A stretch of 64,000 nt of DNA, from the IMG/VR virus record IMGVR_UViG_3300033149_004104, positions 62,001 to 126,000 of that record; one strand, given 5' to 3'. This document shows positions 8,341 to 41,136 of the stretch, in pieces (the stretch's first letter is position 1; every line of letters begins with the position of its first letter). Origin of the DNA: an uncultured virus (IMG/VR IMGVR_UViG_3300033149_004104). Its lineage: Duplodnaviria > Heunggongvirae > Uroviricota > Caudoviricetes. Made by a program: the position numbers and the translations under genes. Below the pieces are notes generated by a model, which had not been told where the DNA came from, ran no database searches, and worked only from the letters and a program-made list of their open reading frames with translations.

Positions 8341-11300
8341 ATGGGTACTGAGCAGTTTGATGATATAGTTGGGAAAAAGATAAAATCTAATCTTGAAATA
8401 ACCACTGAGGAAAAATATCCCGGTAATCCCGAGTACGCTAACAATGTAGATGGAGATTATACTAATGCAATTGGTGATGCGGTTGAAGCGTATGTCAATG
8501 GAGAAGAAACTCAACCACCCGATATTCCTCAATGGGATTCCCCAGCTTACGACTTAGAAATAATAGAAGATGGAACGGGTCTAAAAAAACCTAAAATTAC
8601 ACTTCACTGGATTGATACATCTTCTGATATATTAACAGAAAATTTTCTTATTTATAAGACAGATAACTCGGGTGGAACTTTTGGTACTTTAACCTTATAT
8701 GATAAAATACCAGCGGATGAAACTGATTACGTAGATGAAAAATTATCTTTTAATACAGGATACCGTTATGCAATAAGAGCGGAAGATAGATTTCTAAATC
8801 GTTCTGATTTAACAGATTATCAGGAGATTACAACTCCTACGGTTCCTGAACCATCTCGACCTACTGATAAAATCGTAACAGGTGCCGGGGTAAAACAAAT
8901 CGGTTTAAAATTTCAAGGATCGCCATCTTTTGAAGATATTTTATATTACCAAGTTGAATCAAGAAGTGCTACGGCAGATCCAGATGGATACGGTGGTTAT
9001 GAGGTACCTGCATCTCCTTCTTGGGGAGATTGGGAAGTAATAAATCAATCTCTTTCTACTCGAATAATACATGAAAATTTAGACTATACTAAATGTTATC
9101 AGTATAGATACCGCTCGGTAAATTCTTACGGAGTATCAGGGAGTGCAAATAGCGAAGAAGGACATAGTGAGCTATTATCAGATATAGTTATCCCGCTAAA
9201 AGTAAAAAGAGATGACTTAGATTGGGATATCCAGGATCAAATAGATGGTAAATTAGATTATTATATAACACATTCTTCACAAGACCCTAAATATCATCCT
9301 GTTTACGGTTGGCCTGATACAAGTAAAGACGATTTAGATCATCATAGGGATATTTGGTATCAAATCGATACTGGGCTAAAAAAAGTTTTTAATGGTTATA
9401 CTGGACTATGGGAAAATCAACCAAATATAACTAAATTAACTATTGCCGATGATAATGTCCTTACTCCTTCCGAGAAATTAATATTAAAGAAAGAATGGAA
9501 TACGATAGCTAAAGAAAAAATAGTATTACTTACTCAATTTGGTTTAAAAGAAGGAGAAATCGGTGGTGTTGAAACCGAGAAATATAACTACATAAGCGCT
9601 TATAATACACTAGATAGTTATCTAAATAATATAATAGATGGAATTCTTAAAGAATCAAACTACTTACAAGTAATAGAAGATATTGCAGGAGCTACGGCCA
9701 GAGATGATGGGTTTATCTTTTTATTCTTTCAAGATTCTACTCCTACAGCAAATGGAGCAGGAGATTTATGGATAAATACCGAAGATGAGTTAGATATTCT
9801 TTATAAATGGAACGGCTCAAATTGGATAGAACAGACAGGTGTTTCAGAAGAGGATAGATTAAAAATAGTTTCATTAAAACAAACAACGGGTAGTGATGAT
9901 GAGATTGTAATTTATTTTCAAGATTCAGAGCCTAGTATTCCCGCATCCGATGAAGATGACCTGTGGGTAGATACTGACGGTGGAGATTATCTCTACAGAC
10001 ATACTTCTGGAGGAACATGGGAGATAGTCGAATCTGCTATTCTAGACATAAACGGTGAAGAGCTAAGAGGAAAGTTTAGAGATTATTATGATGCAAAACA
10101 AGAATTAGTCAAAGCGATATCTGACGTATCCGCTGATGATATGAGAACAAGATTTGTAAATAATACCTATATGATCGATATCGAAAATGATAAAATAGAC
10201 AGTACAACATACTTTGTAGATTTCATAAATAATGTTACTAGAACCTCTATTAAAGTCTATTCAGTAAAGGACGAGGATAAAAACAATTTAACTGGCCTCC
10301 AAGCAGATGATTTACTAGTTGCTACAGATACATTTAAAGAGTATCGATACAATGGAGCGTCTTGGGAAGAGTTAACAGAGACTAATACTGATTTTTTGCG
10401 AGCATTTATTGATGCTGATCATTTGAGAACAATTTACATTCCTGCCTCTGATGCTGACTTACCAAGCTTTTATCAGGCTAGAGACTTACTTATCCCCACA
10501 GCTACATTTTCTAATAATGATGGTTCTACTACTAAAGAATTTCAAAAAAATTCTGTATATATTACCACAGTAAATGAAATTAGCGCATTTAATAACGCCC
10601 ACTGGGGATTAAGTATAAAATATACCGATGATACGCTAGCCAAGTATAAAACATCGGTATTTGATTCTCCACCTAATTGTGAATATAATGCGGGGGAAGA
10701 ACGATGGGAAGTTAATACAAGTCTAGGCGATAGTTATGTAAGTGAAGATATATTTGTGCCAGGGCAGGAATATGTAATTTTTGATGGGAGTACAACAAAA
10801 ACATTTGATAAGGGAGAGGTTTATGTAGCTAGCATAGCGGATGAGGAGGCGCATAGAAGAGATGGCTATCCGTTTGTAAATACTCATTGGGAAAGAAAAT
10901 TAAGATTCAGTCAAGAACTGGATGATATAACAGAAGATAATAAATTAAGTCCTACTGAAAAGCTAGCTACAAAGAAAGAGTGGGAGATAATTAGAAAAGA
11001 GTATCCTTCGATAATAGAAGAAGCTGTAGAGCAGGGGGTAAATACTTTTAGTTTTAAATCGGCTTACGACGAATTAGATGATTACCTGAATAATGAAAGT
11101 ACAGGATTATTAAATGATACGAGCACTACTTCTGATATCGTAGGCGATACTTTTAGATCCAAGTTCAGTAATTATTACGATGAAAAAGCTAAAATTCTTA
11201 GATCGATAGCGTATATGGCGTCTCAAGACGCTTACAGTGGAACTGATTATATAACAAAAAGAGAACATGTGGGGGAGGCGGTAGATGATGATACAGAATT

Positions 11301-14300
11301 GTGGCCTTTAACCTCTTCTGCTTGTAATTCATCTTTTGGTACAGAGCCTCTAAATAGAAATGTAGTACTTCAACCAAAAATGCACTCCTGGCTTGGACAA
11401 AGCGGGGGGGTTTTTCAAGAAACAAGCAACGTATTAAAAGACCCTTGTGATTTATCTACATCAAATTGGAGTAAAAACAGTTGCACTACTGAACTTGTAG
11501 AAAAAAAGATAGTAAACTTTCCGTTTACCAAAGCTGAATCGTCAACAGCTTCGGGGTATGTTTATCAAACCTTTGTTCCTACTGCCTCAAGAATAGCGGT
11601 GAGTGCTGTGGTGGAAAAAGGCAATACGGATAATACAGCTTTATATCTTTATGATTCTACTGCAGGTACATATATTGAAAGAGGGCTGTTTACATTCAGC
11701 ACTGAAACCTTTACTCCAGATGATAGTTCAACAATTTATGAAGTAATAACTATAGAACAATATAGACGGTACGTAATTAAATACTCTGTCGATGTAACTG
11801 GTGGAAATACTTTACAATTACGATGTTATGCAGCATGGAATGGTTTAGCGGGAGATTTTACTTATTGGGCTGCTGTACAGGTTACTGAAACTAATTACCC
11901 CGTAGCTTTTATTTCTCCAAAGAAATACCCCTCGCTCACCCGACCTAAAAGTGGATGGAAATACAATTTTCCTCTACAATCACAAATGCGAATAAAAATG
12001 GAAGTAACACCTTGGTTTAATTATGGTACGAGTATTAATCATCGATTTTATGAGTGGTATATAGATGATACACATCGTTTAATATTATATTACGAAGCAT
12101 CTGATGATAAAATTTGTATATATTGGAGAGATGGAGGTACTGTTAGATATCTTCGATCTCCTCAATTTGATGACAGTACCTCTTATCTCAATATTAATCA
12201 AAGACTGAAAATAGATGTAGCATTTGATCCTAATGGCTCAGGAAGTTTTCTTAAAATTTATGATAAAGATGATAATCTGCTCTCGGAAGATACAACATGG
12301 GATGGAACCCCTGATACTTTTACATCTAATTTTAATAATTTTTATGTGGGACAATATGAAACTGGACTACAAGCCGATTCTGAAATACACTCTTTACAAA
12401 TTTGGTCGGGGGCTCTTACCGACACTGGAGATCCTACATTTCAATTAAAACCAGAACCTTTAATTTACGGATATCTTGAACAGAAAGAAACAAAAAGCGA
12501 TACAGTTGGGGTATTTAATGAAATCAATACTCTGGTTTCAGATTCAGAAAATCTTACCACAGCAAATTGGGTTCCTTACCACTGTACAACTGAATTAACT
12601 GATCAATATGTAGAGGGGCATCGATTAACGAAACTTACAGCTACTAGCGCCAATGCACAAGCATATCAAACTGTTACTTTTACATCATCTGAGAAAAAAG
12701 CGATTACTGGAATTGTAAGAAAAGGAAATTATGATCCAGCAGGATTTTTTTTACATGATGCAAGTACTTCTACAAATAAATTATATCTTAAAATCAACTT
12801 TTCTACAAAAACAATTACTGGGGCAGTCGGTTCTTTAATTCATGCTATTTGGCTTGACAATAAGACAGTGCAAGTATACGCTGTATCTAATGCAGTAACT
12901 CATACTAATGCACATCGAATATATTGTGATGTAGACGGAGATGATTTAGGCTCTGCCGGGGATTATACCTATTGGACTGCAGTACAGGTATATGATAATG
13001 TGTTTCCTTATTCTTATACTCCTAACGACCGTGATGCTTGTTTCTTACAAACCCAAAGAGCGCTAACAGAAAAGCATACAATAGAGTGCAAAATCTGGCC
13101 TTTCTGCAACTACGACACTGCTGGAACCCATTACATAGCCTCCTGGTACGTAGATTCAAATAATTATTATATGCTTAGATTCTACTCTGCAAAGATTCAA
13201 TTACTATATAAAAGAGGAACGGGAGAGGCGATTTTAGAATCTTCTGCCTACACTTCACAAAGCGATTGGAATAAAGCACATGATATAGCAATAATAGCAG
13301 ATCTAGGAACAGGAGATACAACAGGAACAAAGTTAATAATAGACGGAGTAATAGTAGATGAAACATGGAGTGGAAACATTGATAGCTTCTCCCCTATTTT
13401 TCCCACCCTTACAATTGGATCTAAGACGAATAATAATACAGAGTATTTTGAAGGTTTTATATGGAATCTTGCCTATACTGCACGGAAAAAAGAAGTTTGG
13501 GAAGTACAACAACACTATCAAAGACAACGACCTTATTATGATATCAACTCTATAGCTAATGAATCTGATACTATTTACATAGATCCTTATAATGTGTATA
13601 TAAAAAATTTAAAAGTATTCGATAGCGTATTTTTCGGTAGACAAGAGTCAGAGAGTCTTCCTTATTTTAAATGGGATACAAATAGTGGAAAAATAACAAT
13701 AAATAAAACTCTTATTACTGCAAGCGACAGTTATAACTATTGGGACTTAGATACCGGGGGATTTAGAGTAGGCAATGCTAGTAGTTATATATATTATGAC
13801 CCCTCAGGAAATGGTTCTCTAACGCTTAAAATGGATGCAATATATGCATCAACCTTAGAAACTCTAGTAAATGGAAAACTTTCAATTTCAATGGAAGGTG
13901 ATTTAACAGGAGAACCCCCCTCTCTTCAATCTCCTATCTACGTGACAACCGAAGATACAGGGGGTGCTGATCCTGCTTATGGTATCATTAGCCATTTAAA
14001 TGAGATAAGATTAAGAACGGGTAATGCAGACCCACAATCAGCTTCTGATGCAATAGTTATAGATAATAATCAAAATGTTGGCATCGGGACGACTAGTCCA
14101 AGTGCACTATTAGAGATAAAAACAGCTATAGCTGCAAGTTCAGGTCTCCTAATTACAGGTGGTGCGTCTTCTAGCAATGCTCTCAAAGTCGCTGGAAGCG
14201 CAGGAGATGGTGGGGGGAATGTCGTAGAAATATCTCCTAGTTGGAATACTAACAATGGGCCGACGGCTCTTTTGATTAATCCCGAGAATATTGGCGGAAC

Positions 14301-15063
14301 CCAGACTGGAGCAAAACTGCTAGATATTCAATATGATGGTTCAAGTAAGCTTATGGTAGATAAATCAGGCAACGTCGGCATCGGAACGCCAAGTCCAGAG
14401 AGTAAATTGCAGGTTATTGTTCCAACAGCTGCTTCTGGCTTGGGGCTTCTCATTAGTACGGCACTAGGAACAAATTATGATGATACAAGCATTCCTTTTA
14501 GAATTATAGAGTCGGCAGGGACATTGTTTACAGTACAAGGAAACGGTAACGTCGGCATCGGGACAACGGGTCCGGGGGCGAAATTAGAAGTAAAAGCGGG
14601 TTCCGAAGGGCAATCTTCGCCTGTAGAAGCAATAAGAATCTGGGGTCCAAACAGTCCAACTAATATGAATTCTGCCCAAGATTTGAAATGGCATTTTGCT
14701 AGTGCGGGTTCTGCAGGTATAAGAGCATATCGTGGAGGCAGTTGGAATACTTATTTGCAATTTTTGACTAATGCTGCTTCTGCTGGTTCAGATAATCCTC
14801 AGGTAAGAATGACTATAGATGATACAGGCAATGTCGGCATCGGGACGTCGAATCCAAGCCAGAAACTTTATGTTTCGGGTAATATCCAAGCTACAGGAGC
14901 TATAATTGCAAATACTGCTGGATCTGTTTATGTGCGATATGGTATAGGTGATCCGGGAAGTGGGAATGGTAAATTAGCAGTATATGCAAGTACTTTAAAT
15001 ACCTTTCGTGCGGGGACTCAATGGGGGTGGCAACACTTTAATCCAGATGGACAAGGATGGTAA
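8341..15063 (+). CDS. Very large tail fibre / receptor-binding protein (FN3, duplicated lectin/LamG-like modules, NVGIGT repeats)
   Basis: 2240 aa; FN3-like YRYAIRAED and YQYRYRSVN; duplicated (D/E)DNxL(T/S)PxEKLxxKKEW blocks; two GVF..E.....W...YWxAVQV modules; four NVGIGT repeats. Confidence 0.75.
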   Translation: MGTEQFDDIVGKKIKSNLEITTEEKYPGNPEYANNVDGDYTNAIGDAVEAYVNGEETQPPDIPQWDSPAYDLEIIEDGTGLKKPKITLHWIDTSSDILTENFLIYKTDNSGGTFGTLTLYDKIPADETDYVDEKLSFNTGYRYAIRAEDRFLNRSDLTDYQEITTPTVPEPSRPTDKIVTGAGVKQIGLKFQGSPSFEDILYYQVESRSATADPDGYGGYEVPASPSWGDWEVINQSLSTRIIHENLDYTKCYQYRYRSVNSYGVSGSANSEEGHSELLSDIVIPLKVKRDDLDWDIQDQIDGKLDYYITHSSQDPKYHPVYGWPDTSKDDLDHHRDIWYQIDTGLKKVFNGYTGLWENQPNITKLTIADDNVLTPSEKLILKKEWNTIAKEKIVLLTQFGLKEGEIGGVETEKYNYISAYNTLDSYLNNIIDGILKESNYLQVIEDIAGATARDDGFIFLFFQDSTPTANGAGDLWINTEDELDILYKWNGSNWIEQTGVSEEDRLKIVSLKQTTGSDDEIVIYFQDSEPSIPASDEDDLWVDTDGGDYLYRHTSGGTWEIVESAILDINGEELRGKFRDYYDAKQELVKAISDVSADDMRTRFVNNTYMIDIENDKIDSTTYFVDFINNVTRTSIKVYSVKDEDKNNLTGLQADDLLVATDTFKEYRYNGASWEELTETNTDFLRAFIDADHLRTIYIPASDADLPSFYQARDLLIPTATFSNNDGSTTKEFQKNSVYITTVNEISAFNNAHWGLSIKYTDDTLAKYKTSVFDSPPNCEYNAGEERWEVNTSLGDSYVSEDIFVPGQEYVIFDGSTTKTFDKGEVYVASIADEEAHRRDGYPFVNTHWERKLRFSQELDDITEDNKLSPTEKLATKKEWEIIRKEYPSIIEEAVEQGVNTFSFKSAYDELDDYLNNESTGLLNDTSTTSDIVGDTFRSKFSNYYDEKAKILRSIAYMASQDAYSGTDYITKREHVGEAVDDDTELWPLTSSACNSSFGTEPLNRNVVLQPKMHSWLGQSGGVFQETSNVLKDPCDLSTSNWSKNSCTTELVEKKIVNFPFTKAESSTASGYVYQTFVPTASRIAVSAVVEKGNTDNTALYLYDSTAGTYIERGLFTFSTETFTPDDSSTIYEVITIEQYRRYVIKYSVDVTGGNTLQLRCYAAWNGLAGDFTYWAAVQVTETNYPVAFISPKKYPSLTRPKSGWKYNFPLQSQMRIKMEVTPWFNYGTSINHRFYEWYIDDTHRLILYYEASDDKICIYWRDGGTVRYLRSPQFDDSTSYLNINQRLKIDVAFDPNGSGSFLKIYDKDDNLLSEDTTWDGTPDTFTSNFNNFYVGQYETGLQADSEIHSLQIWSGALTDTGDPTFQLKPEPLIYGYLEQKETKSDTVGVFNEINTLVSDSENLTTANWVPYHCTTELTDQYVEGHRLTKLTATSANAQAYQTVTFTSSEKKAITGIVRKGNYDPAGFFLHDASTSTNKLYLKINFSTKTITGAVGSLIHAIWLDNKTVQVYAVSNAVTHTNAHRIYCDVDGDDLGSAGDYTYWTAVQVYDNVFPYSYTPNDRDACFLQTQRALTEKHTIECKIWPFCNYDTAGTHYIASWYVDSNNYYMLRFYSAKIQLLYKRGTGEAILESSAYTSQSDWNKAHDIAIIADLGTGDTTGTKLIIDGVIVDETWSGNIDSFSPIFPTLTIGSKTNNNTEYFEGFIWNLAYTARKKEVWEVQQHYQRQRPYYDINSIANESDTIYIDPYNVYIKNLKVFDSVFFGRQESESLPYFKWDTNSGKITINKTLITASDSYNYWDLDTGGFRVGNASSYIYYDPSGNGSLTLKMDAIYASTLETLVNGKLSISMEGDLTGEPPSLQSPIYVTTEDTGGADPAYGIISHLNEIRLRTGNADPQSASDAIVIDNNQNVGIGTTSPSALLEIKTAIAASSGLLITGGASSSNALKVAGSAGDGGGNVVEISPSWNTNNGPTALLINPENIGGTQTGAKLLDIQYDGSSKLMVDKSGNVGIGTPSPESKLQVIVPTAASGLGLLISTALGTNYDDTSIPFRIIESAGTLFTVQGNGNVGIGTTGPGAKLEVKAGSEGQSSPVEAIRIWGPNSPTNMNSAQDLKWHFASAGSAGIRAYRGGSWNTYLQFLTNAASAGSDNPQVRMTIDDTGNVGIGTSNPSQKLYVSGNIQATGAIIANTAGSVYVRYGIGDPGSGNGKLAVYASTLNTFRAGTQWGWQHFNPDGQGW
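14074..14847 (+). repeat. Four DNA repeats AAYGTYGGCATCGGRAC encoding NVGIGT
   Basis: Copies start at 14074, 14371, 14548 and 14830. Confidence 0.85.
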
Positions 15064-31140: not shown

Positions 31141-32249
31141 GCTATATATTTTTCTCTATTTAAGAATTTTGGTTGCCCCTCAACAAATTTAATTTTATTT
31201 ACATTAAACCAGCATCTTATTAAATTCATCTGTTTTCTATACGTTAGCCCTTCTACCGCCCTGTTCTTATAGATATGATCTCCCCCAAAATCAAAACCAC
31301 TTAACCATATCATATCATACTCTTCATACAAAGCTTGTACTAAAAGAAGCATGCCCGTTTTAAAAGAATTAGTATAAAACAGCTTAACATCTTTGTTGAC
31401 TTTTTCTATAGTATAAACATCATAATCAAGATTATGCTTCTCTTTAAACTCAAGCATATCAAAAACTAAATGCGTAAACCTGGTTCCTACTCTATCAATT
31501 CTATTAAGATTATTATATTCTCTGTAATATGCATCATTACAAACCCATATTTCTTCTCTCCAATTTTTTATAAATCTTCTATTAAGAGAATTCTCTCTAC
31601 TTCTTCCATTTCCTAAAATAAGCACGTTATTAGTTCTTTTAACATTCTCTTCTTGATAACTTTTTACAGGATAATTAACAAAAAAGTTTTCTTTTAAATG
31701 ATCTTCTCCATTCATATATTTTCTAGCATAACTATTTATAGGCATCTCACTTAATATGAAAGGCTTATGATCTATTCCCACAAAATGAATTCTTTCTAAT
31801 CCAAACACCCTTGCTATTTTTCTCCAATTATCCACCCATTTACTTTTATTTCTTCTTTCATGATTTTTTACATATATATCTTTTCCGCCCAGATCAAATC
31901 CTACTAAAAATATCTTACCATAATTTTCATATAATGCCTTTACAACAAGCGTTGACCCGGAATCTTTAATATATCTTTCTGGAATTTCAACTTTTTTTAC
32001 TTCTGGTATACTTAATGCTTTTGTATTTTTACATAATAATTTATAATTTAATTTATATCTTTTTTTAGCTCTATAAGCTTCTTTTAATGCATCCTTATCT
32101 CCTATTAGAATATCTATTCTTGGAATTTTTTTATCAATCAGGTCTTTAAAAGCCCAATTGCAAGTCCAAATTTCTCCTTGCCATTTTTGTATAAAATCCT
32201 GATGTTCTAATCTTGATATTCCGTTACCTATAATAAGAACTTCTTTCAC
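31137..32249 (-). CDS. Double-domain sialyltransferase-fold protein, paralog 1
   Basis: IGNGISR..WTCN..DSG..GFDLGG, then LGNGRSR..WVCN..KTG..GFDFGG. Confidence 0.6.
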   Translation of the reverse strand: MKEVLIIGNGISRLEHQDFIQKWQGEIWTCNWAFKDLIDKKIPRIDILIGDKDALKEAYRAKKRYKLNYKLLCKNTKALSIPEVKKVEIPERYIKDSGSTLVVKALYENYGKIFLVGFDLGGKDIYVKNHERRNKSKWVDNWRKIARVFGLERIHFVGIDHKPFILSEMPINSYARKYMNGEDHLKENFFVNYPVKSYQEENVKRTNNVLILGNGRSRENSLNRRFIKNWREEIWVCNDAYYREYNNLNRIDRVGTRFTHLVFDMLEFKEKHNLDYDVYTIEKVNKDVKLFYTNSFKTGMLLLVQALYEEYDMIWLSGFDFGGDHIYKNRAVEGLTYRKQMNLIRCWFNVNKIKFVEGQPKFLNREKYIA

Positions 32250-32959
32250 TTAAATTTCTCCTTTAGCAATAATTCAACAATTCTAAAGTCCGTCTTTACA
32301 TCTATTTCAAAATGGGTATAATAGTCCATTATAAAAAGCCCAACCGGATCAGTTAACCTGTTTTTTGATTTAATAATATTACTAATCGTGTTTATATACA
32401 TAGCCCCGTTTTCCATATAAATGTTATTTTTGTAAAAACGCTTCTCTTGCCTTAAAGGCCTAGATTTAAAATCATAATTCAAGGGAATAGCCCGAGATTT
32501 TTGATATTTATGGGAAAAACTTTCAGTCCATAAAAACCTGTGATTTAGATCCGCTACTGATAACATTGAATTGTATGACCCCTTTTCATATTCATCAATC
32601 ATTTTATTAACATCCTTATAATTAAGCAAAGGATTAGTAGCTTGGACAAGTATAAAAACGTCTTCATTATTTTCGTATCCTTTTCCCAAATACTCCAATA
32701 TAGCATCCTCGGTTGTTGAATTATCTTGTGCATTTTTATGTTCCCTATCATAAAAGATAATTTTATTAAATTGAAATTTTTTTATTATTAATTTATATTC
32801 TTCCGAATCGATTGCAACTATTATTTTATTAACTTTACTTTGCTGTAGAGCACTTAAAACCCAATATACTAGAGGTCTATGATTAATCTTTTTTATATTC
32901 TTATCTTTTATTCCTTTACTGCCACTTCTTATAGGAACAAACGATATTATATTATTCAT
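32246..32959 (-). CDS. neuA: CMP-nonulosonic acid synthetase (acylneuraminate cytidylyltransferase)
   Basis: VPIRSGSKGIKDKNIK, QATNPL, RPLRQ, ENGAMYI, EIDVKTDF. Confidence 0.9.
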   Translation of the reverse strand: MNNIISFVPIRSGSKGIKDKNIKKINHRPLVYWVLSALQQSKVNKIIVAIDSEEYKLIIKKFQFNKIIFYDREHKNAQDNSTTEDAILEYLGKGYENNEDVFILVQATNPLLNYKDVNKMIDEYEKGSYNSMLSVADLNHRFLWTESFSHKYQKSRAIPLNYDFKSRPLRQEKRFYKNNIYMENGAMYINTISNIIKSKNRLTDPVGLFIMDYYTHFEIDVKTDFRIVELLLKEKFK

Positions 32960-32973
32960 ATAATATTAGTCAC

Positions 32974-33576
32974 TTAAAAAATATAATCAAATCTTTCTAA
33001 ATCATCAGCATATAAAGTACTAACTATATCAACAGATTTTTTATCGTAATATTCTTTATAATTTTTTCTTCGTGGCGCTCCGAAACTTTTATTAATCTGT
33101 TTAGGCTGTGGTATTCCTATTAAATCAAATATGTGGCGTATTTCTTTTTCAAAGTTTTCAAATCTTGCAATATAATCATAATTTTTACTACCTTTAGGAA
33201 TTGCAAACCAACGTAACTGCGGTACATAGTGTATTTTATGTAAAGACTCTTTTAATTGAGTTTGAATAAAATCGTTAAAATCTTTTTTTATAGCACTAAA
33301 TACTTTATTGTCATTTAAATCTTTTTGAGAAAGTGAACCTCTGTTTGCCCGTGACCAATACGAAACAAGTCTATCAAAAGGATTTCTTACAATAGTAAAC
33401 GTAAAGTATTTATCCCATTTTTTGGGGTACGCTTGTATGTATCGAATTGGGAAGGCATGTCTCCCACCTACTTCTTTTGGATTTATGACCATATTTTCAT
33501 CAAATAATGCATTTATCGTATGCCCTCCAGTACGAGGAATACTTACAAAAATCGTCTTGTACTTATCACTTACCAT
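32974..33576 (-). CDS. Sulfotransferase (Sulfotransfer_2-like)
   Basis: IFVSIPRTGG (5'-PAPS site), VRNPFDRLVSYW (3'-PAPS site), HYVPQ, YADDLERFDY. True start probably ATG 33576. Confidence 0.85.
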   Translation of the reverse strand: MVSDKYKTIFVSIPRTGGHTINALFDENMVINPKEVGGRHAFPIRYIQAYPKKWDKYFTFTIVRNPFDRLVSYWSRANRGSLSQKDLNDNKVFSAIKKDFNDFIQTQLKESLHKIHYVPQLRWFAIPKGSKNYDYIARFENFEKEIRHIFDLIGIPQPKQINKSFGAPRRKNYKEYYDKKSVDIVSTLYADDLERFDYIF

Positions 33577-33580
33577 ATTA

Positions 33581-33781
33581 TTATACTCTCGTTGTTTGTA
33601 ATATGAAGAACCCATGCCCATTAGGCCAGCTTTTATAATTATCTTTATATCTACACCCTTGTACACCCCCCCAAGAAATATCATCCCAAAAGATAAATAT
33701 CTTATCCACATAATCAGTTATCGAATTTATAGACTGCTGGACAAAATCTTCCCCATAAAGACATCTATATATTGCTATCAA
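33581..33781 (-). pseudogene. N-terminal remnant of a GT2-like glycosyltransferase (66 aa)
   Basis: MIAIYRCLYGEDFVQQSINSITDYVDKIFIF resembles a GT2-family N-terminus, then terminates. Confidence 0.5.
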
Positions 33782-34469
33782 AATTCTTAATAAACTCCTT
33801 TAATTTTTCAGCATCCCGTATTCTTTCCCATTCTTTCTCTCTATATAATGCTTTTACTTTATCTCGTTTTCTTCTCGCCCTTTGATCTCTATATGTGTCA
33901 TCCAACTCTGACTTACCCACACTGAAATGTAAATGCTCTATATACAGATCAGGTATATATACAAGCCTATCTATTCTTTTTGCTAAATCAGTAAGCCAAG
34001 TATCGTTATAATCTGCACTAAAGTAGGGAGGTACAAAATATCCTACTGTTTCTATCCAATTTTTATGAATAAAGCCATGGGTTCCTAACTCCCCACTATC
34101 TACAATTCCATCTCTACCGTATACGAATAAAATTTTATCAGGATATTTTTCAAATTCGCTTTTAACAATTCTATCCCATTCTTTTGTTTTATAAACAAGA
34201 TCATCTCCTGCATGATGATAAATAGGACCTGTTGCTTTTCTGTAGCATTCATTCCACATATTACTAAGTACAATCCTTTCACCAATAATGAATTTTATAT
34301 TATAATTTTTTTGCAATTCTAGTGCTTTATCTCTTGATCTTTTATCGTCATTATCAATATAAAAAACAATTTCAACACTATTAGAATCCTCTGCTTTAGA
34401 AAATGCTGAATTGCATAATCTTTCCATTCCTGACGGTCTGTTTCTTGTTGGCACTAGTAAACTAATCAA
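33765..34469 (-). CDS. Glycosyltransferase family 2
   Basis: ISLLVPTRNR, IVFYIDNDD, WNEC...GDD, YNDTWL, IEHLH. Confidence 0.85.
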   Translation of the reverse strand: MISLLVPTRNRPSGMERLCNSAFSKAEDSNSVEIVFYIDNDDKRSRDKALELQKNYNIKFIIGERIVLSNMWNECYRKATGPIYHHAGDDLVYKTKEWDRIVKSEFEKYPDKILFVYGRDGIVDSGELGTHGFIHKNWIETVGYFVPPYFSADYNDTWLTDLAKRIDRLVYIPDLYIEHLHFSVGKSELDDTYRDQRARRKRDKVKALYREKEWERIRDAEKLKEFIKNFDSNI

Positions 34470-34473
34470 CTTT

Positions 34474-35049
34474 TTACTCTCCTATTCTAATTATTTCCAC
34501 TCCGGGCTGATCTTTTATATATCTCCAGGGGTCAAGAATACAAGAGCCTTTTGGAAAAGAATATGTTCCAAATTCTTTATGTCTTGTTCCAATAAAATAG
34601 ATAGCTGGCTCTTGTAATGGAGGGGGACTTTTATCAATATACGGATCATACATTTGAGCATCTATATCTTTTTCCCTTAGTATATTCTTTAAAAGGATAG
34701 CGGGGCTACCAACTTCTAAATTAGTCTGTTCTTTAAACGCTTTTCCTAAAATAATTACGGGCAAATCCAACTGCTCTTTCTTTTCTTTTACTAATTCTGC
34801 CAACCATTCAGTTTGTTTTTCTCTGCAAAGCATAATATTTTCAAACCAATCGTACGAAAGATTAAGTTTTCTAGAAAGCCATGAAAGAGCTATATTATCA
34901 CGGGGATGACAATTATGCGAAACAATATTAGATTTTTTCTCTATCCAAAATAAATCATCATTATTCTGATGATTTGGAAATAACTCTAAATTATACACAT
35001 CCCCTTCATAATATAATGTTTCAATTTTTTTAATATTCTTTTTTTTCAT
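34474..35049 (-). CDS. IntC (46 aa) fused to the C-terminal part of a UDP-glucose/GDP-mannose dehydrogenase
   Basis: MKKKNIKKI...DVYNLEL...IVSHN|CHPRDNIAL...ILGKAFK...YDPY...DPWR; own SD AGGAG. Confidence 0.9.
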   Translation of the reverse strand: MKKKNIKKIETLYYEGDVYNLELFPNHQNNDDLFWIEKKSNIVSHNCHPRDNIALSWLSRKLNLSYDWFENIMLCREKQTEWLAELVKEKKEQLDLPVIILGKAFKEQTNLEVGSPAILLKNILREKDIDAQMYDPYIDKSPPPLQEPAIYFIGTRHKEFGTYSFPKGSCILDPWRYIKDQPGVEIIRIGE

Positions 35050-35403
35050 ATTTTAACACTCCTATTAGCTAATCTTCTTTTAATTTCTATTATCATAATA
35101 TAATTTATCCGTTTGTTTTACTTTATCTGCTCGAATAATTTCCATTTTACCATTCCTAAATACAGGAATTAAATGATCCTCAGTACAAATAAATTCTTCA
35201 TCCTGAACAGAGAATTTATACAATTTGCCTTTATATTTTCTTTTAGTTACGTCTTTTATTAATTTTTCTTCTTTTTCAGAACAATCGCTATTAATAGATT
35301 CTATAAAAAATTTTTTATTTTCTGATGAGTGGAAAATCTCATAGAAATCCCCTATAGTAAATATTTCATTATTAACTTTTATTTTTGAATCATATAAAAC
35401 ACA
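34912..35403 (-). mobile_element. Naturally split intein: IntN 35083-35403 (107 aa), IntC 34912-35049 (46 aa)
   Basis: Block A CVLYDSKI, block B CTEDHLI, block F DVYNLEL, block G SHN followed by Cys+1; stop codon, 30 nt gap and new RBS between halves. Confidence 0.9.
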
Positions 35404-36207
35404 TCCTCCACCATCTCCCATTCCGCCCCTCATATATTTATTTGATATAATTCTATCAGTTGCAAGTGAAAGAGCCCTAGTTACTTCATCTACATTTGTA
35501 TTTGGAGTCTTATGACATATCTCCATAACGGTATTCATCATAACTATTTTTGTCGATATCGCAGTGTTATAAACCACTTTTATAAGCTCTGCATTTTCTA
35601 TTGTTGTTTCAAATACAGGACGATCATGTAAAGTTTTATAAAAAAGTTTTACTGTTTCTTTCGCTGCAAAACTATCAGTTCCTAATAATACAAACTCGGG
35701 GTTCATAAAATCGGGTATTGTGGTTCCCATAGCTATAAAGAAAGGATTATAACATAGATCTATATAAGGAGACATAAACGGACGAATTTCTCTTTCAATA
35801 GTCCCTGGTAACACTGTTGAAATAATAACCACAATTTTATGTCTTTTTATTTTATTTAATTCCTCTGAAAGTTGTATTACTGATTCTTTTAAGTAACTAT
35901 AGTCAAAATCTTTTCTTTCATCCGGTAATCTTGTAATTCCTTCATATTTTTCAGCATGAGGCGTTTGTACAGCAATAAAAATTATATCAGAACGCCCCGC
36001 TACATCCTTAATTGGTAATATCTTGATATTACTATTATCGAGTAGCTCTTGAGCCCCCTCTTCTCTATATGGAATTTTTTTATCTTTTATAATTTCTTTA
36101 ACTTTCTCGGAAGGATCATATCCCACTACTGAATGGCGCCCAAATTTTTCTATTGCTAAAGCGCAAGGTAGCCCCAACTTTCCAAGACCTAAAAATCCTA
36201 TATTCAT
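35080..36207 (-). CDS. N-terminal part of a UDP-glucose/GDP-mannose dehydrogenase fused to IntN
   Basis: GLGKLG Rossmann motif, IAVQTP, STVLPGT, YNPFF, AELIKVVYN, GMGDGGG|C. Confidence 0.9.
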   Translation of the reverse strand: MNIGFLGLGKLGLPCALAIEKFGRHSVVGYDPSEKVKEIIKDKKIPYREEGAQELLDNSNIKILPIKDVAGRSDIIFIAVQTPHAEKYEGITRLPDERKDFDYSYLKESVIQLSEELNKIKRHKIVVIISTVLPGTIEREIRPFMSPYIDLCYNPFFIAMGTTIPDFMNPEFVLLGTDSFAAKETVKLFYKTLHDRPVFETTIENAELIKVVYNTAISTKIVMMNTVMEICHKTPNTNVDEVTRALSLATDRIISNKYMRGGMGDGGGCVLYDSKIKVNNEIFTIGDFYEIFHSSENKKFFIESINSDCSEKEEKLIKDVTKRKYKGKLYKFSVQDEEFICTEDHLIPVFRNGKMEIIRADKVKQTDKLYYDNRN

Positions 36208-37205
36208 TTGAAAACTCCTTCGTATATTCTTAAATAATCATTCAATATTTTTTCATTATTCCAATGCTTCTCCATAAATTCTCTTGAATCCCGCTGAAGT
36301 TTCTTTAACAAACTTCTATTTTCATTTAACTCTGTAATTGTAGTAGCTAAAGAGTGCTTATCTGCCAGCACCCAGGGCAATTCATACAATTCGCACTTTA
36401 AGAACTCGGTAAGGTATTGAATCATCCAGTCTTTTAAGTTACACATAACTACTTTCCCTTGTGATAGCCCCTCCAATGATGATAAATGATAGCTGCCAGT
36501 ATAAATATCGTCAATATGAATATCACCTGAGGCTCGTCTTTTTAAACACTCATCAAATCGTTCTCCGTAGATAATATCTTTTTCTATAATACCTTTACTT
36601 TCTAATTCATTTAATATAGCAGAAACCTCGCTATAACTTTTATAAGCCCATGTGGATTTCCTCTTTTTTTTAAGTTTTTCCAACGGCTCCTTATTAGATG
36701 GGCTATAAGTAACTTTTATTCTTTCATTATTAACTTCCTTGTATTGAAGCAAAGGGTCGCATATATCAACAACATTACGCACTGGATAAAAATCATCTTT
36801 AAGTAAAGACTTCAATCTTACCGCTTGATACTGTGCAATACAAGCTATTCTGTCTATTCTTACCCATTTCTTAATAACATTAAACATTTCATTAATTACT
36901 TTCTCAGGCTCACCGTGCATCTGGTACACAAACGGTTTATTAATATTGCTTAGCATTTGCCATCCCTTGCTATTTTTATGTAAAGGAGGCTGATTATGAA
37001 TGTGTATAATATCTGCCCAGTTAAGATATTCTTTAAATTGTTTTAAATCTTCTTTACCTTTACCCCATACAACATCTGGTATTATTTTCATACTACTTAA
37101 TCGAGATTGAATGCACTTTGATTCTATCCCATTTTTATTTAAAAAATTACTTAACCTAACCGGCGCTCCTGCTAATGGTGATCTACAAAGATGCAATATT
37201 TTCAT
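36204..37205 (-). CDS. GT-B (GT4-like) glycosyltransferase
   Basis: MKILHL, WADIIHIHN, YHLSSLEGLSQGKVV, SREFMEKHW. Confidence 0.7.
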   Translation of the reverse strand: MKILHLCRSPLAGAPVRLSNFLNKNGIESKCIQSRLSSMKIIPDVVWGKGKEDLKQFKEYLNWADIIHIHNQPPLHKNSKGWQMLSNINKPFVYQMHGEPEKVINEMFNVIKKWVRIDRIACIAQYQAVRLKSLLKDDFYPVRNVVDICDPLLQYKEVNNERIKVTYSPSNKEPLEKLKKKRKSTWAYKSYSEVSAILNELESKGIIEKDIIYGERFDECLKRRASGDIHIDDIYTGSYHLSSLEGLSQGKVVMCNLKDWMIQYLTEFLKCELYELPWVLADKHSLATTITELNENRSLLKKLQRDSREFMEKHWNNEKILNDYLRIYEGVFK

Positions 37206-37962
37206 CTAGTAGAAACTCCTCATCGTTAAACAATTTAAAGACAACATCATTATAATATTTGTCTTTCATTAAATGTAAGTTTTTCCAACTATTGAGATAA
37301 TCCTTTCTTGAGAACGATAGTTTTCCAACTTTCTTTTTATGCTCGATACTCTTAGCGTATTGCGCACTCTCTTCAGCACTTTCAATATAACTCCCATCAA
37401 ATCCAACATAATATATTTCTTTATATCCCATATACGCTGTAAGAAAATAAAACGCTCCCACTACCGAACCTTGTGCCTGTACAATTATATTATCTTTATA
37501 TTCGGTATTGAAGCTCCCCTTCCGGATATCATTATCATCAATATTATTTGATTTAAAAAAATATATGTTCTTCAGATTCTTTATCTTTTCATAAAGTGAC
37601 ATAATTATTTCTATATCTAATGGGCTATCATTTCTTTTTTCCTTTTTCTCAATATGAAATGAAAAGATAGCATGCGGTAGTAATACATATTGAGCTAAAT
37701 GTAATTTATCTACATTTCTTCTAAGTCCTTGATAATGAAAATTAACAGCATACTGAACACTCTTACTAGCTGTAAAGATAGATATAGCATCAGTAAGTGT
37801 ACAAATATCATACTGCCTTTGCCCTTCCAGTTTCTTAATATTCAGCGTATCTATAGAAGGGCCGGAGCCAATAAGTAAAGCCTTGTTATTTCGAGGCTTC
37901 CTCGGTACTTTTTCTAAAGTAGGCAGAAAAGGCTCTCTTAAGTCATCGACTGTTGTTATCAT
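37183..37962 (-). CDS. GT42 (Cst-II)/Maf-DUF115-like sialyltransferase-fold protein
   Basis: ALLIGSGPSI...GSV...MGYKEIYYVGFD resembles the GNGPS / GYKEIYLxGID motifs. Confidence 0.65.
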   Translation of the reverse strand: MITTVDDLREPFLPTLEKVPRKPRNNKALLIGSGPSIDTLNIKKLEGQRQYDICTLTDAISIFTASKSVQYAVNFHYQGLRRNVDKLHLAQYVLLPHAIFSFHIEKKEKRNDSPLDIEIIMSLYEKIKNLKNIYFFKSNNIDDNDIRKGSFNTEYKDNIIVQAQGSVVGAFYFLTAYMGYKEIYYVGFDGSYIESAEESAQYAKSIEHKKKVGKLSFSRKDYLNSWKNLHLMKDKYYNDVVFKLFNDEEFLLDENIASL

Positions 37963-38699
37963 TTCTTCTTACCTGCTCTTCTTAATCGTGCCTCATAATT
38001 ATAATAATCGGGGTGTTCTATGATTTTTTTTACAATATTATAAATAAAATCATGAGTTTTTATCTTTCCTTTTTGTAGTAATTGCCACATATACTTAGCA
38101 TTAGAATATTGATCATGTGGATCAACACGACCCCGATTTTTTATGTTTGCTTTATCACGAATTTTCTTAGGCAGATAGTCTGGAAAATATTCTCTATAAT
38201 CGTTGGGAATAAATAAATCAGGTTTCATATAATAAAAGTCTATTCCAGTAAACCAAAGTTCTTTTGGATTATATTGTAAAAAATGTTCCATGATAATAGG
38301 GCCGTACAGTACGCCTTTTATTTTTTTGCTAAGTTTTGCTATTGTATCAGCAAGCGTAAATGTAGGAATGGTTTTAGAGTATTTATCAATAAGATTCCTC
38401 TGATTTGTTTTCATTCCTAATAATTTCACCCCATATTTATCTCTCCATGTTTTTAAATACCCCGCCGGTTGCATTTCACGATTAAATTGTACATTCATAC
38501 AAAGTATATCGCATCTCTTACCATAATTCTCCACATAAGCAACTTTATCTAAAAGAAAAATAGCGCCGTTTGTTCTTATTACGCAATCGAAACTGTCTAT
38601 TTCTTTACCGAGATATTTCCCTTGTAATATCGGAGACGGGCCAACAAATATTACTCGTTTCTCTTCTACCTGCTGCTGTAATAACTTTTCTACGTTCAA
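37959..38699 (-). CDS. GT29-like sialyltransferase
   Basis: RVIFVGPSPILQGKYLGKEIDSFDCVIRTN matches sialylmotif L; G...KELWFTGIDFY matches sialylmotif S; HDQ near the C-terminus. Confidence 0.75.
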   Translation of the reverse strand: MNVEKLLQQQVEEKRVIFVGPSPILQGKYLGKEIDSFDCVIRTNGAIFLLDKVAYVENYGKRCDILCMNVQFNREMQPAGYLKTWRDKYGVKLLGMKTNQRNLIDKYSKTIPTFTLADTIAKLSKKIKGVLYGPIIMEHFLQYNPKELWFTGIDFYYMKPDLFIPNDYREYFPDYLPKKIRDKANIKNRGRVDPHDQYSNAKYMWQLLQKGKIKTHDFIYNIVKKIIEHPDYYNYEARLRRAGKKK

Positions 38700-39247
38700 T
38701 ATTTCTTCCTTATAACACAGGATGTATCTTTAAATATTTCATCTGGAAATTTAAGTACTTCATTAAAAGCCTTTCTGACTCCTGGATGATGCTTACTATT
38801 ACTATAATCATGTAGCGCCAGGAAGCCATTTATTTTTAATTTTGGCCACCATAAGCCAATATCTTCCTTTACATTAAGAAAATTATGATTAGCATCGATA
38901 TAAATAAACATTAAAGAGTTATTTTGAAACATTTTACAAGCTTCTTTACTTGTTGTTTTTATTTTATAAATATTAGAATACTTTTTACAAAGTTCATCAA
39001 ATTGCTTTTCTACTATTTCCATAGGATATTTATATGAAGAAGCGTCATTTTTATCATATCCGTTTTTCCAAGCATCAATCGCTATAACCTGATCAAAATT
39101 TTTTGCAAATATTTCTGTACTATCTCCTACGTAAGAGCCTATTTCTACAACTTTGGCAATAGTAGGATCTATTCGCTTTACATAAGCACATAAATCTTGA
39201 AGTCCCGATTTTGCATTTCTAGCTTTTCGTATACTAATTTTTTCCAT
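38696..39247 (-). CDS. Class I SAM-dependent methyltransferase (Methyltransf_24-like)
   Basis: VEIGSYVGDS, IDAW, FIYIDANH, GFLALHDY; start 39247 has SD GGAG. Confidence 0.85.
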   Translation of the reverse strand: MEKISIRKARNAKSGLQDLCAYVKRIDPTIAKVVEIGSYVGDSTEIFAKNFDQVIAIDAWKNGYDKNDASSYKYPMEIVEKQFDELCKKYSNIYKIKTTSKEACKMFQNNSLMFIYIDANHNFLNVKEDIGLWWPKLKINGFLALHDYSNSKHHPGVRKAFNEVLKFPDEIFKDTSCVIRKKY

Positions 39248-40026
39248 TATATCTCCATACGATAATAATACATCCAAAGTTCTTCTAATTCATCATACCC
39301 TTTATTTAATTTATCCCTAGGGGATTTATCCCAAGGCTTTTGACTTACAAAGTGAAGTAGTCTTACTTTTTCGTTAGTTATTCTATACAATAAATCTCTA
39401 TTTCTACTAAAGAAAATTTTATGTTTCTTACCTTTCCACATTCTCTTCTCACAATTATATTCTTTCGGAAGAATGTGAATCATCTTTTTAAAGTATTTAT
39501 TAATAGCTTTTTGATCCGGCATTGAAAATCCCCGCCTTGAAAACTGTAAAATATTTTTATACAGCTTAAAGTCTAGATAGGGTTTATTTACAACAATGAC
39601 GCCAGTATTTATTCCGCTTCGTAGATTATCGCTTCCTGATCCATAAGCCTGCACTCCCGCCAATCTTGCTCCACATCGAAAAAGTGGATTTAAATCTCCT
39701 AATGCAATAGTATCCATATCGATAAAAACAACTCTATCACAATCAGTATAAGAAAAAATATCAAGTTTGTAATACGTATTTTTTAAACAATCGTCTGTTA
39801 TTGACATATTAATGTGTTTATAATTTTCAAATCTTGGTTTTACAAACTCTACATTATCATGTAATAAAGAAGCCATATAACCTTTATTTGAATTAGAAAG
39901 CCCCATATCAATAAATCGCCATTTATAATTTAATATTTTGGGACTATTTTTTACCACCGATTTATAAAAAGCAATAAAGCCGGGCATAAACGCATTATCT
40001 ATCATTGACAGTAGAATAATTTTCAC
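39247..40026 (-). CDS. Glycosyltransferase family 8
   Basis: YYKLDIF, VVFIDMD (DxD), INTGV, DQKAIN, YNC, LLHFVSQKPW. Confidence 0.85.
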   Translation of the reverse strand: MKIILLSMIDNAFMPGFIAFYKSVVKNSPKILNYKWRFIDMGLSNSNKGYMASLLHDNVEFVKPRFENYKHINMSITDDCLKNTYYKLDIFSYTDCDRVVFIDMDTIALGDLNPLFRCGARLAGVQAYGSGSDNLRSGINTGVIVVNKPYLDFKLYKNILQFSRRGFSMPDQKAINKYFKKMIHILPKEYNCEKRMWKGKKHKIFFSRNRDLLYRITNEKVRLLHFVSQKPWDKSPRDKLNKGYDELEELWMYYYRMEI

Positions 40027-40028
40027 TC

Positions 40029-40280
40029 TTATATCTCTTCGTATGTCCTATTAAATATATCGATTTTACAGGGATAGAACTCTCCATTTACTCCTTGTAT
40101 TACATAATTTCCTTTTTCACATTTCATGTCCCCCTCTAACGTTTTTATAACTAAGGCATTACTTGACTCCACAGATAAATGACAATGAGATTTACAAAGT
40201 TTTTTTATCTCATCCAAATTATTTCCATCCCATCTTATTGCTTTCACAATGATTGGCTTCTTTCTGAATTCTTTCCACAC
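40029..40280 (-). CDS. Conserved phage protein
   Basis: FRKKPIIVKA...TLEGDM...GVNGEFYPCKIDIF..TYE, a widespread phage family of unknown function. Confidence 0.75.
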   Translation of the reverse strand: MWKEFRKKPIIVKAIRWDGNNLDEIKKLCKSHCHLSVESSNALVIKTLEGDMKCEKGNYVIQGVNGEFYPCKIDIFNRTYEEI

Positions 40281-40281
40281 T

Positions 40282-41136
40282 TTAATTACCTCCGATCCTT
40301 AAATTCTTTTTCTTCTCTTCTTCTCCTGGATATAATACTCTTGGCCCGTATCCTTTGGATAACCCCCTCTCAATATCTCTTACTCCTTTAACAAGCTCAA
40401 ATAAACCATTAGGTTCAACTGAAGCTGCTTGATCACTACCCCACAGATTATGATTCAACGTTATATGCTTTTCTATCCATGTAACTCCATACGCAAGCAC
40501 TGCAAATGCATCTTTAATTCCGTAATAATGAGAGCTATAACCGATTTCTTTTCGAGGATACTTTTCTTTCAACCATTTTACATACTGTAAATATAAATCA
40601 TCAATAGAAGTAGGATACACACTATTTGTATGCATAATAACATGAGGATCTAATATATTAACAGCTTTTTCTATTTCCTCCTCAGTACTCATGCCCGTCG
40701 ACATTATCCTATAATCAAATAAATCTCTACATAATTCAAGAAGTGCGTCGTTGGTAATAAGAGCAGATGGAATCTTTACAATATCCACAAATTTCTTCAT
40801 GAAATAAGCGCTGTCTAAATCCCAAACCGATGCAAACCAGCCTATTCCACAACTAAAACAATAATTATCAATTTCAGCATAATTGTCTTCATTAAATTCA
40901 ATATCTTTTTTATATTGCAAATATGTAATAGGCTTTTGTCTCCAAGGTACAATTTTTTCTTTATTTTTCTTATCTTCAGGAACGCAGATATCCGGATTTC
41001 TTTTCTGGAACTTTACATAATTACAATCTGCAGCACTAGCAATTGTAATAAGTTTTCTAGCACTTTTAATAAACTCTAACTTATCATTTCCAAAGAATGC
41101 ATTTAAGCCAATCTCAGCTATTATCTTAACTTCCAT
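40282..41136 (-). CDS. neuB: Nonulosonic acid synthase, short form lacking the C-terminal SAF domain
   Basis: IIAEIGLN, VKFQKR, KIPSA, MSTGMST, HTNSVYP, GYSSH, IEKHITL, GSDQAAS. Confidence 0.9.
   Translation of the reverse strand: MEVKIIAEIGLNAFFGNDKLEFIKSARKLITIASAADCNYVKFQKRNPDICVPEDKKNKEKIVPWRQKPITYLQYKKDIEFNEDNYAEIDNYCFSCGIGWFASVWDLDSAYFMKKFVDIVKIPSALITNDALLELCRDLFDYRIMSTGMSTEEEIEKAVNILDPHVIMHTNSVYPTSIDDLYLQYVKWLKEKYPRKEIGYSSHYYGIKDAFAVLAYGVTWIEKHITLNHNLWGSDQAASVEPNGLFELVKGVRDIERGLSKGYGPRVLYPGEEEKKKNLRIGGN

Follow-up and report, generated by a model that had tools for sequence, protein, structure and literature searches.

The window analysed here is a stretch of 64,000 nucleotides (positions 62,001 to 126,000) from the 135,563-base IMG/VR virus record IMGVR_UViG_3300033149_004104, an uncultured member of the Caudoviricetes estimated to be 82% complete. 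On its minus strand, two adjacent genes together encode a nucleotide-sugar dehydrogenase that is interrupted at its catalytic cysteine by the two halves of an intein. Gene 1 encodes the N-terminal part of the enzyme (N-extein) followed by the N-terminal half of the intein (IntN), while gene 2 encodes the C-terminal half of the intein (IntC) followed by the remainder of the enzyme (C-extein). The two exteins add up to 268 + 145 = 413 residues. A first-pass annotation, made from the letters of the sequence alone, had proposed this two-gene layout with 268 + 107 and 46 + 145 residues, and both the coordinates and the sizes match exactly the open reading frames (ORFs) read from the sequence (Table 1).

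Table 1. Coordinates of the split dehydrogenase, its surrounding gene cluster and the nuclease-like ORFs of related loci (aa, amino acids; nt, nucleotides)
Feature	Position	Strand	Description
Gene 1	35080..36207	minus	375 aa: N-extein (268 aa) and IntN (107 aa)
N-extein	35404..36207	minus	residues 1-268; NAD-binding and central domains; C-terminal end GMGDGGG
IntN	35083..35403	minus	107 aa, CVLYDSKI to YYDNRN; TAA stop at 35080-35082
Spacer	35050..35079	minus	30 nt; AGGAG at 35059-35063; three further in-frame stops
Gene 2	34474..35049	minus	191 aa: IntC (46 aa) and C-extein (145 aa)
IntC	34912..35049	minus	46 aa, MKKKNIKKIETL to IVSHN
C-extein	34477..34911	minus	145 aa, from the Cys of CHPRDN; stop at 34474-34476
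Glycan cluster	32246-41136	minus	NeuB (189 bits), CTP_transf_3 CMP-type cytidylyltransferase, GT2, GT8, GT29-like sialyltransferase, sulfotransferase, methyltransferase, MptE-like protein
Intervening nuclease-like ORFs of related loci	L087:1767-2567, L015:2191-2991, L069:2138-3004, L075:2168-3001, L078:2180-2998		about 267-302 aa; C-terminal domain T7-endonuclease-I-like

Anatomy of the split dehydrogenase

The C-terminal part of gene 1 reads KYMRGGMGDGGG up to the intein boundary and CVLYDSKIKVNN directly after it, continuing through FICTEDHLIPV to KLYYDNRN and a TAA stop. The N-terminal part of gene 2 reads MKKKNIKKIETLYYEGDVYNLELFPNHQNNDDLFWIEKKSNIVSHN and then CHPRDNIALSWL, and includes the sequences DVYNLEL and IVSHN/CHPRD. 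IntN and IntC lie in the same reading frame. Read in the IntN frame from the stop to the ATG of gene 2, the DNA is TAA AAG AAG ATT AGC TAA TAG GAG TGT TAA AAT, which places four in-frame stops (TAA, TAA, TAG and TAA) between the last IntN codon and the ATG. Because these stops are four and of two kinds, no single sequencing error, read-through event or reassigned stop can give one continuous ORF; read-through or an alternative genetic code was rejected, since the spacer contains both TAA and TAG. The gap of 30 nt with its own AGGAG, described in the first-pass annotation, is confirmed, the AGGAG lying 9 nt upstream of the gene 2 ATG. The statement that no homing endonuclease separates the halves was likewise borne out, with four stops in the frame between the last IntN codon and the ATG. 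From the end of IntN, through the stop and spacer, to the start of IntC, the sequence is identical in three further IMG/VR contigs (139,904, 139,843 and 106,054 bases) from other samples.

The exteins carry, in order across the two genes, the NAD-binding (PF03721, 82.1 bits on gene 1), central (PF00984, 49 bits on gene 1) and UDP-binding (PF03720, on gene 2 and below its cut-off) domains of the UDP-glucose/GDP-mannose dehydrogenase family. The NCBIfam model TIGR03026 (413 positions) aligns its positions 1-269 with residues 1-274 of gene 1 and its positions 264-358 with residues 47-140 of gene 2, so the enzyme profile continues over the break. Together these two halves score under the full-length cut-off (189.8 bits), and nothing else in the 135.6-kb record matches TIGR03026. 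No NCBIfam equivalog model was reached, and the enzyme belongs to a divergent clade marked by the motif CHPRD. Variants of the exteins in close relatives (15 synonymous and 11 non-synonymous) fit purifying selection on the enzyme. These variants, the lack of a second copy in the record and the position inside a glycan cluster (Table 1) are signs that the phage depends on the gene.

The splice junction was defined by comparison with an uninterrupted homologue. The 642-kb genome of an uncultured phage, LR756502.1, is the only DNA match in the phage collection and encodes a contiguous, intein-less homologue of 417 residues. Residues 1-258 of this protein align with residues 1-259 of gene 1 (58% identity, E 5e-108) and residues 268-412 with residues 47-191 of gene 2 (60% identity, E 1e-67), leaving 153 intervening residues without a counterpart. 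Its junction sequence, GGMGDGGGCHPRDNIALSWL, runs as GGMGDGGG-CHPRDN without interruption over the predicted splice point, and GG/CHPRD is present in 53 of 53 intein-less relatives among all fetched loci. The junction GGGCHPRD that had been predicted from the window is thus exact. Once spliced, the +1 Cys (GDGGG-C-HPRD) aligns with the Cys of the motif SCFQKD in the UDP-glucose 6-dehydrogenases 2o3j and 9ou8. The Cys of SCFQKD-type motifs is the catalytic nucleophile of UDP-glucose dehydrogenases, and the alignment with 2o3j upholds the earlier placement of the +1 Cys at the catalytic position, the catalytic role itself being established background.

The interrupting sequence has the features of an intein on both sides of the break. 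The profile TIGR01445, which describes the N-terminal region of inteins, matches residues 269-347 of gene 1 with 30.6 bits (cut-off 24.5), and IntN aligns with positions 10-92 of the 155 positions of PF14890, in a match below the cut-off of that model. Searched by sequence against the Protein Data Bank (PDB), IntN matches the Methanococcus jannaschii KlbA intein (2jmz, E 2.7e-6), the fused Aes123 PolB1 intein (9hth, E 3.9e-6) and, weakly, gp41-1 (E 0.05). The block A nucleophile, Cys269 of gene 1, directly follows GMGDGGG and is invariant in 22 N-terminal halves (alignment A3) and in the 12 rows of a second alignment, A6. The TxxH motif of block B is TEDH (gene 1 residues 342-345); in the 22 N-terminal halves T342 is invariant and H345 is conserved in at least 90%, while the corresponding T79 and H82 of A6 are invariant in all 12 rows. 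Block G reads IVSHN/C, and its H45, N46 and C47 are invariant in 14 C-terminal halves. The assignment of IntC is based on these motifs and on its alignment with the contiguous intein that a related viral locus, L030, has at this site: residues 6-46 of IntC align with the last 33 residues of the L030 intein, whose Pfam profile match extends to its end and whose LAGLIDADG domain lies just before the IntC-like stretch. The break in the window falls between blocks B and F, at the position that the LAGLIDADG domain occupies in contiguous relatives. All class-1 catalytic residues (Cys1, TxxH, His-Asn and Cys+1) are therefore present and conserved among relatives.

The basic N-terminus ascribed to IntC from the sequence was confirmed in part: the first 12 residues carry a net charge of +4, while each intein half has an overall net charge of 0. 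With both halves neutral overall, DnaE-like electrostatic steering is unsupported.

The fold was examined in a contiguous relative, L034, using its intein with five flanking residues on each side and eleven IntN rows as the alignment (A6), rather than the window's own chains. The 154-residue L034 intein is 49% identical to IntN in A6. Its best AlphaFold model has a pLDDT of 83.2 and a pTM of 0.78, and the top matches listed by Foldseek against the PDB are inteins or related HINT domains, the best being 9hth (E 3e-9, TM 0.74). Further matches among those listed include NrdJ-1, gp41-1, Npu DnaE and VidaL, as well as the DnaE structures 4kl5, 1zde and 3nzm. The HINT fold predicted for L034 would bear on the family and not directly on the two chains of the window. 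Two MAFFT alignments that mixed IntN-only, IntC-only and contiguous rows (A4 and A5) were misaligned and left unused, A6 taking their place. They put the second half of IntN on the C-extein or, repeatedly, on IntC (KKI..VT.R.Y.G.LY.F of IntN on KI..IE...Y.G.VYNLEV of IntC), sub-parts of the intein that are alike in sequence. HINT domains have pseudo-two-fold symmetry, and the likeness appears to fit it.

Relatives and states of the insertion site

The split intein belongs to a large family. Of 277 candidates from a word-indexed protein search with gene 2, 165 reached E <= 1e-3. Twelve further clusters at 90% identity consist of proteins of 185-192 residues that combine IntC with the C-extein; they are 42-57% identical to gene 2 over 93-99% of its length. 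In an alignment of these clusters, the window and a single truncated member (A2, 14 rows), the residues M1, G16, VYNLE18-22, P25, H27, DD31-32, IV42-43 and H45-N46-C47 are invariant. An exhaustive phmmer search of 1.84 billion representative sequences with IntN returned 79 matches at E <= 1e-3, and all of these except the 46-residue P0191 were scanned with Pfam. Among the 78 scanned proteins, 41 have a UDP-glucose dehydrogenase (UGDH) extein, 11 a PolB extein and 26 no extein family at E <= 1e-5. In 29 of the 41 UGDH proteins at most 9 residues follow the IntN match, so that they look split; six have a tail of 14-22 residues after the match, and another six continue into IntC, which makes them contiguous inteins. 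The 22 N-terminal halves of A3 are 25-56% identical to the window.

The states of the insertion site were followed in viral contigs scanned with the alignment of IntC and C-extein. The best 80 of 97 confirmed relatives were classified by tblastn with four pieces and by inspection of the ORFs of representatives; the search patterns bias this sample, so the counts are not frequencies. The site is empty in 46 of the 80 loci. In 23 it is fractured, with IntN and IntC about 840-900 nt apart, and in five (L012-14, L074 and L084) it is split with a short spacer. Of these five, L012-14 are siblings of the window phage, and the spacer is 16 nt in L074 and 21 nt in L084. Contiguous inteins are found in five loci, as a mini-intein of 154 residues in L034 and with a LAGLIDADG domain in L030, L057, L036 and L037, the domain lying inside an ORF of 1192 residues in the last two. 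The remaining locus, L072, is cut by the end of its contig and stays outside these classes. The genome contigs of 185,579 species yielded no relative when scanned with IntC junction patterns, although a pattern scan is weak evidence of absence. At the DNA level, the break regions of split and contiguous relatives were too AT-rich for an informative alignment.

Most split relatives carry a free-standing nuclease gene between the two halves. A same-strand ORF of 261-302 residues lies there in all 14 fractured loci inspected, out of 23. Nine of ten intervening ORFs weakly match Phage_endo_I (PF05367) and/or DUF7487 in Pfam, and one, from L087, exceeds the cut-off (32.7 bits against 29.1). The same ORF matches a T7 endonuclease I structure by sequence (1m0d, E 7e-6). 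The intervening protein is a candidate for a new intein-associated homing endonuclease. In the window, the free-standing endonuclease gene of the fractured layout is absent, and only 30 nt lie between the halves.

Two side observations concern the contiguous loci. The C-terminal part of the contiguous L034 protein (L034:2638-3099) is 90% identical to P0022, a stand-alone protein of 188 residues whose first residue is the IntC Met and which combines IntC with the C-extein; among close relatives the state therefore varies, being contiguous in L034 and split in P0022. A small change in the linker seems to be enough for the toggle, unless L034 reflects an assembly error. In L036 (70-3645) and L037, the 1192-residue ORF has a UGDH NAD-binding domain that extends to residue ~222 and a central domain that begins at ~603. 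The ~380 extra residues, upstream of the LAGLIDADG intein at the catalytic Cys, could be another intein within this gene.

A tree of the N-exteins of 15 representatives has two clades with 100/100 support each. The window groups with the fractured L015, the contiguous mini-intein L034 and the LAGLIDADG inteins L030 and L057. The other clade holds the short-spacer loci L074 and L084 in a 100/99 group with the fractured L069 and L087. As the window and L074/L084 fall in different clades, the split without an endonuclease occurs in both, beside relatives that bear the endonuclease. The tree is unrooted, and loss of the nuclease, rather than failure to acquire it, is inferred. In a tree of IntN, split and mini-inteins form one group (99/98) separate from the LAGLIDADG inteins; two intein lineages share the one insertion site.

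A further state may be represented in run X2, a sediment metagenome, where a 151-nt contig of depth 2.4 joins window position 34914 to 35407 and skips 492 nt. It differs from the window at 0 of 42 letters on one side and 2 of 107 on the other. The intein and spacer (34912-35403) also measure 492 nt, so the skip has the same size and is shifted by one codon. By its coordinates, the contig would read ...GDGG-N-CHPRD, keeping the Asn codon of the intein and losing Gly268; an Asn at that position occurs in 0 of 53 intein-less relatives. This single contig of low depth looks like an imprecise deletion of the intein at the DNA level in a near-identical phage, the alternative being that it represents an independent empty allele.

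Splicing model and competing explanations

With the anatomy, the exact junction, the conserved catalytic residues and the family membership in hand, the window very likely encodes a class-1 intein that is naturally split and functional and interrupts the phage's nucleotide-sugar dehydrogenase at its catalytic Cys. Within a widespread viral family of fractured genes, it is the form that lacks an endonuclease. Each of the two genes would be translated independently, probably from a shared operon transcript, and gene 2 would use its own Shine-Dalgarno sequence. The 107 residues of IntN and the 46 residues of IntC would then associate into a single HINT domain. Within it, Cys1 would undergo an N-S acyl shift, the +1 Cys would attack, and the terminal Asn would cyclise, assisted by the penultimate His. 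The result would be a nucleotide-sugar dehydrogenase of 413 residues, its exteins joined to read ...GMGDGGG-CHPRDN... across the junction. Because the +1 Cys is catalytic, and because the break separates the NAD-binding and central domains from the sugar-nucleotide-binding domain, enzyme activity should need splicing. The element would stem from a lineage of mobile inteins, most split members of which carry the free-standing T7-endonuclease-I-like gene that is absent here.

Several observations weigh against this model. Some concern how well the parts are recognised: PF14890 scores 21.2 bits on gene 1 (cut-off 35.8), no intein profile of NCBIfam or Pfam matches gene 2 at E <= 1, PF03720 reaches 23.9 bits on gene 2 (cut-off 30), and the remaining four of the five AlphaFold models of L034 are poor (pLDDT 55-58). 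Others concern the intein itself, the outlier of its family. Its IntN branch, at 1.11, is the second-longest in the group of split and mini-inteins (after L086 at 1.16), IntC departs from the consensus of at least 90% at five positions (Q33L, Y35W, D37E, T40S and G41N), and this divergence could indicate relaxed constraint. An intein-less allele in a near-identical relative would, in addition, make the intein dispensable. These last points, together with the lack of a homing endonuclease that could sustain mobility, speak for a splicing-dead intein, in which the locus would be either a pair of pseudogenes or a two-chain enzyme held together non-covalently through the intein halves. A precedent for the two-chain arrangement is a fragmented ribonucleotide reductase reported to have its parts joined by protein-interaction domains (PMC3045599). 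A dead intein is nonetheless quite unlikely: all its catalytic residues are intact, four assemblies show the same two undamaged ORFs, Shine-Dalgarno sequence and start codon, and the exteins are free of lesions and 58-60% identical to intact homologues. Moreover, the break lies at the catalytic Cys, which would leave the active site of an unspliced complex burdened with 107 + 46 additional residues.

The remaining points concern the reality of the break. The stop and spacer rest on four assemblies, possibly from sibling samples. No Logan contig or read from two sediment-metagenome DNA runs bridges the spacer, positions 35104-35295 being uncovered in runs that contain shares of only 0.11 and 0.06 of the words of the stretch, and no RNA sequencing run containing the stretch was found. 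If the break were an artefact of assembly or sequencing, or were passed by read-through, the true gene would contain a contiguous mini-intein like that of L034, whose 154 residues are close to the combined length of IntN and IntC; the shared frame of the two halves would fit such a gene. This explanation is highly improbable given the four in-frame stops (TAA three times, TAG once), the well-placed AGGAG at 9 nt from the ATG, the identical sequence in three contigs from other samples, and the recurrence of the two-gene layout in the diverged L074 and L084 and in 12 clusters of proteins whose first residue is the IntC Met.

A more far-reaching proposal accepts splicing and adds a regulatory role. 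The endonuclease-less split intein would then be more than a selfish remnant and would be kept as a post-translational switch, with trans-splicing activating the dehydrogenase in a redox- or timing-gated manner; the family would consist of orthogonal Cys1/Cys+1 split inteins, and the T7-endonuclease-I-like protein would be an intein homing endonuclease. Since both intein nucleophiles are Cys and the +1 Cys is catalytic, a switch of this kind would yield active enzyme only with both halves present and their cysteines reduced. If so, the phage's output of nonulosonic-acid or uronic-acid glycans would be gated by trans-splicing. As a whole, we consider this proposal unlikely.

Phage setting and known split inteins

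The split dehydrogenase lies inside a tightly packed, co-oriented cluster of minus-strand genes for glycan metabolism (Table 1). The upstream ORF and gene 1 share 4 nt, and 4 nt separate the end of gene 2 from the next ORF. Judging by its gene content, the cluster would serve to make and transfer a nonulosonic acid, possibly in sulfated form, with enzymes that the phage itself encodes. No terminator-like site was found on the minus strand between 32000 and 42500; the scan for promoters and terminators gave no more sites than shuffled sequence, and hence defines no operon boundaries. Elsewhere the window encodes a DNA polymerase A, a primase, a clamp-loader-like ATPase, a thymidylate kinase and an SNF2 helicase. 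Pfam matches nothing at E <= 1e-4 in an ORF of 2240 residues on the plus strand (8341-15063) or in several neighbours of 471-631 residues, all of which presumably encode large structural or tail proteins.

Among characterised split inteins, the closest is Aes123 PolB1 (9hth, fused), both by IntN sequence and by the fold of L034, and PolB N-terminal halves that end in IntN rank second to UGDH as a host class of the IntN relatives (11 of 78). Aes123 PolB1 differs in its host, a DNA polymerase B, in its chemistry, being cysteine-less according to the entry title (S1A mutant) where the window has Cys1 and Cys+1, and in sequence, with an identity of ~20%. The Npu and Ssp DnaE inteins are naturally split class-1 inteins with Cys1 and Cys+1 and no endonuclease, and they are broken at the same structural point as the window intein. 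Their halves are encoded far apart in cyanobacterial chromosomes, whereas those of the window are 30 nt apart, and no similarity to DnaE is detectable beyond the fold.

Fractured genes with split inteins were described in ocean metagenomes by Dassa et al. 2009 (PMC2677866), including gp41-1, gp41-8, NrdJ-1 and IMPDH-1, and gp41-7 without an endonuclease. Like those loci, the window locus is viral and metagenomic, interrupts a conserved enzyme gene at a conserved site, is broken at the usual insertion point of the endonuclease and gives each half its own translation signals. The full fractured layout is found in 23 of the 80 related loci; the window corresponds instead to the endonuclease-less case of gp41-7. 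That study lists eight host types, replication and nucleotide enzymes that serve DNA synthesis and repair; the term 'UDP' is absent from its text (PMC2677866). In contrast, the host in the window is a glycan-pathway dehydrogenase, and the nuclease of its relatives is T7-endonuclease-I-like (1m0d, PF05367).

Contiguous 'udp' inteins of UDP-glucose 6-dehydrogenase are reported from Halobacteria, Methanococcales, Dictyoglomus and others in PMC4071816 and PMC2874743, which bear out the first-pass statement on such inteins in archaea. They interrupt the same enzyme family, but they are contiguous and reside in cellular genomes; at the very site used in the window, contiguous inteins are present in the viral relatives L030, L034, L036/37 and L057. 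A split intein in UDP-glucose dehydrogenase was not found in a full-text literature search whose coverage leaves out most subscription journals as well as InBase. Two phage or virus papers that contain both terms (PMC3322345 and PMC8528832) treat them separately. The mechanism proposed here is of a known kind, while the host enzyme, and the type of nuclease in the relatives, appear to be undescribed.

The dozens of diverged natural IntN/IntC pairs in this family, with a native Cys+1 junction, are candidates for orthogonal ligation tools. Placed exactly at the catalytic Cys of a glycan-pathway enzyme, the split intein of the window extends the fractured and split layout past the replisome network. 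One insertion site keeps the empty state, the mini-intein, the LAGLIDADG intein, the fractured gene with a nuclease, the split gene without one and an apparently deleted allele. With all of these stages at a single site, the model in which split inteins evolve from contiguous ones becomes directly testable.

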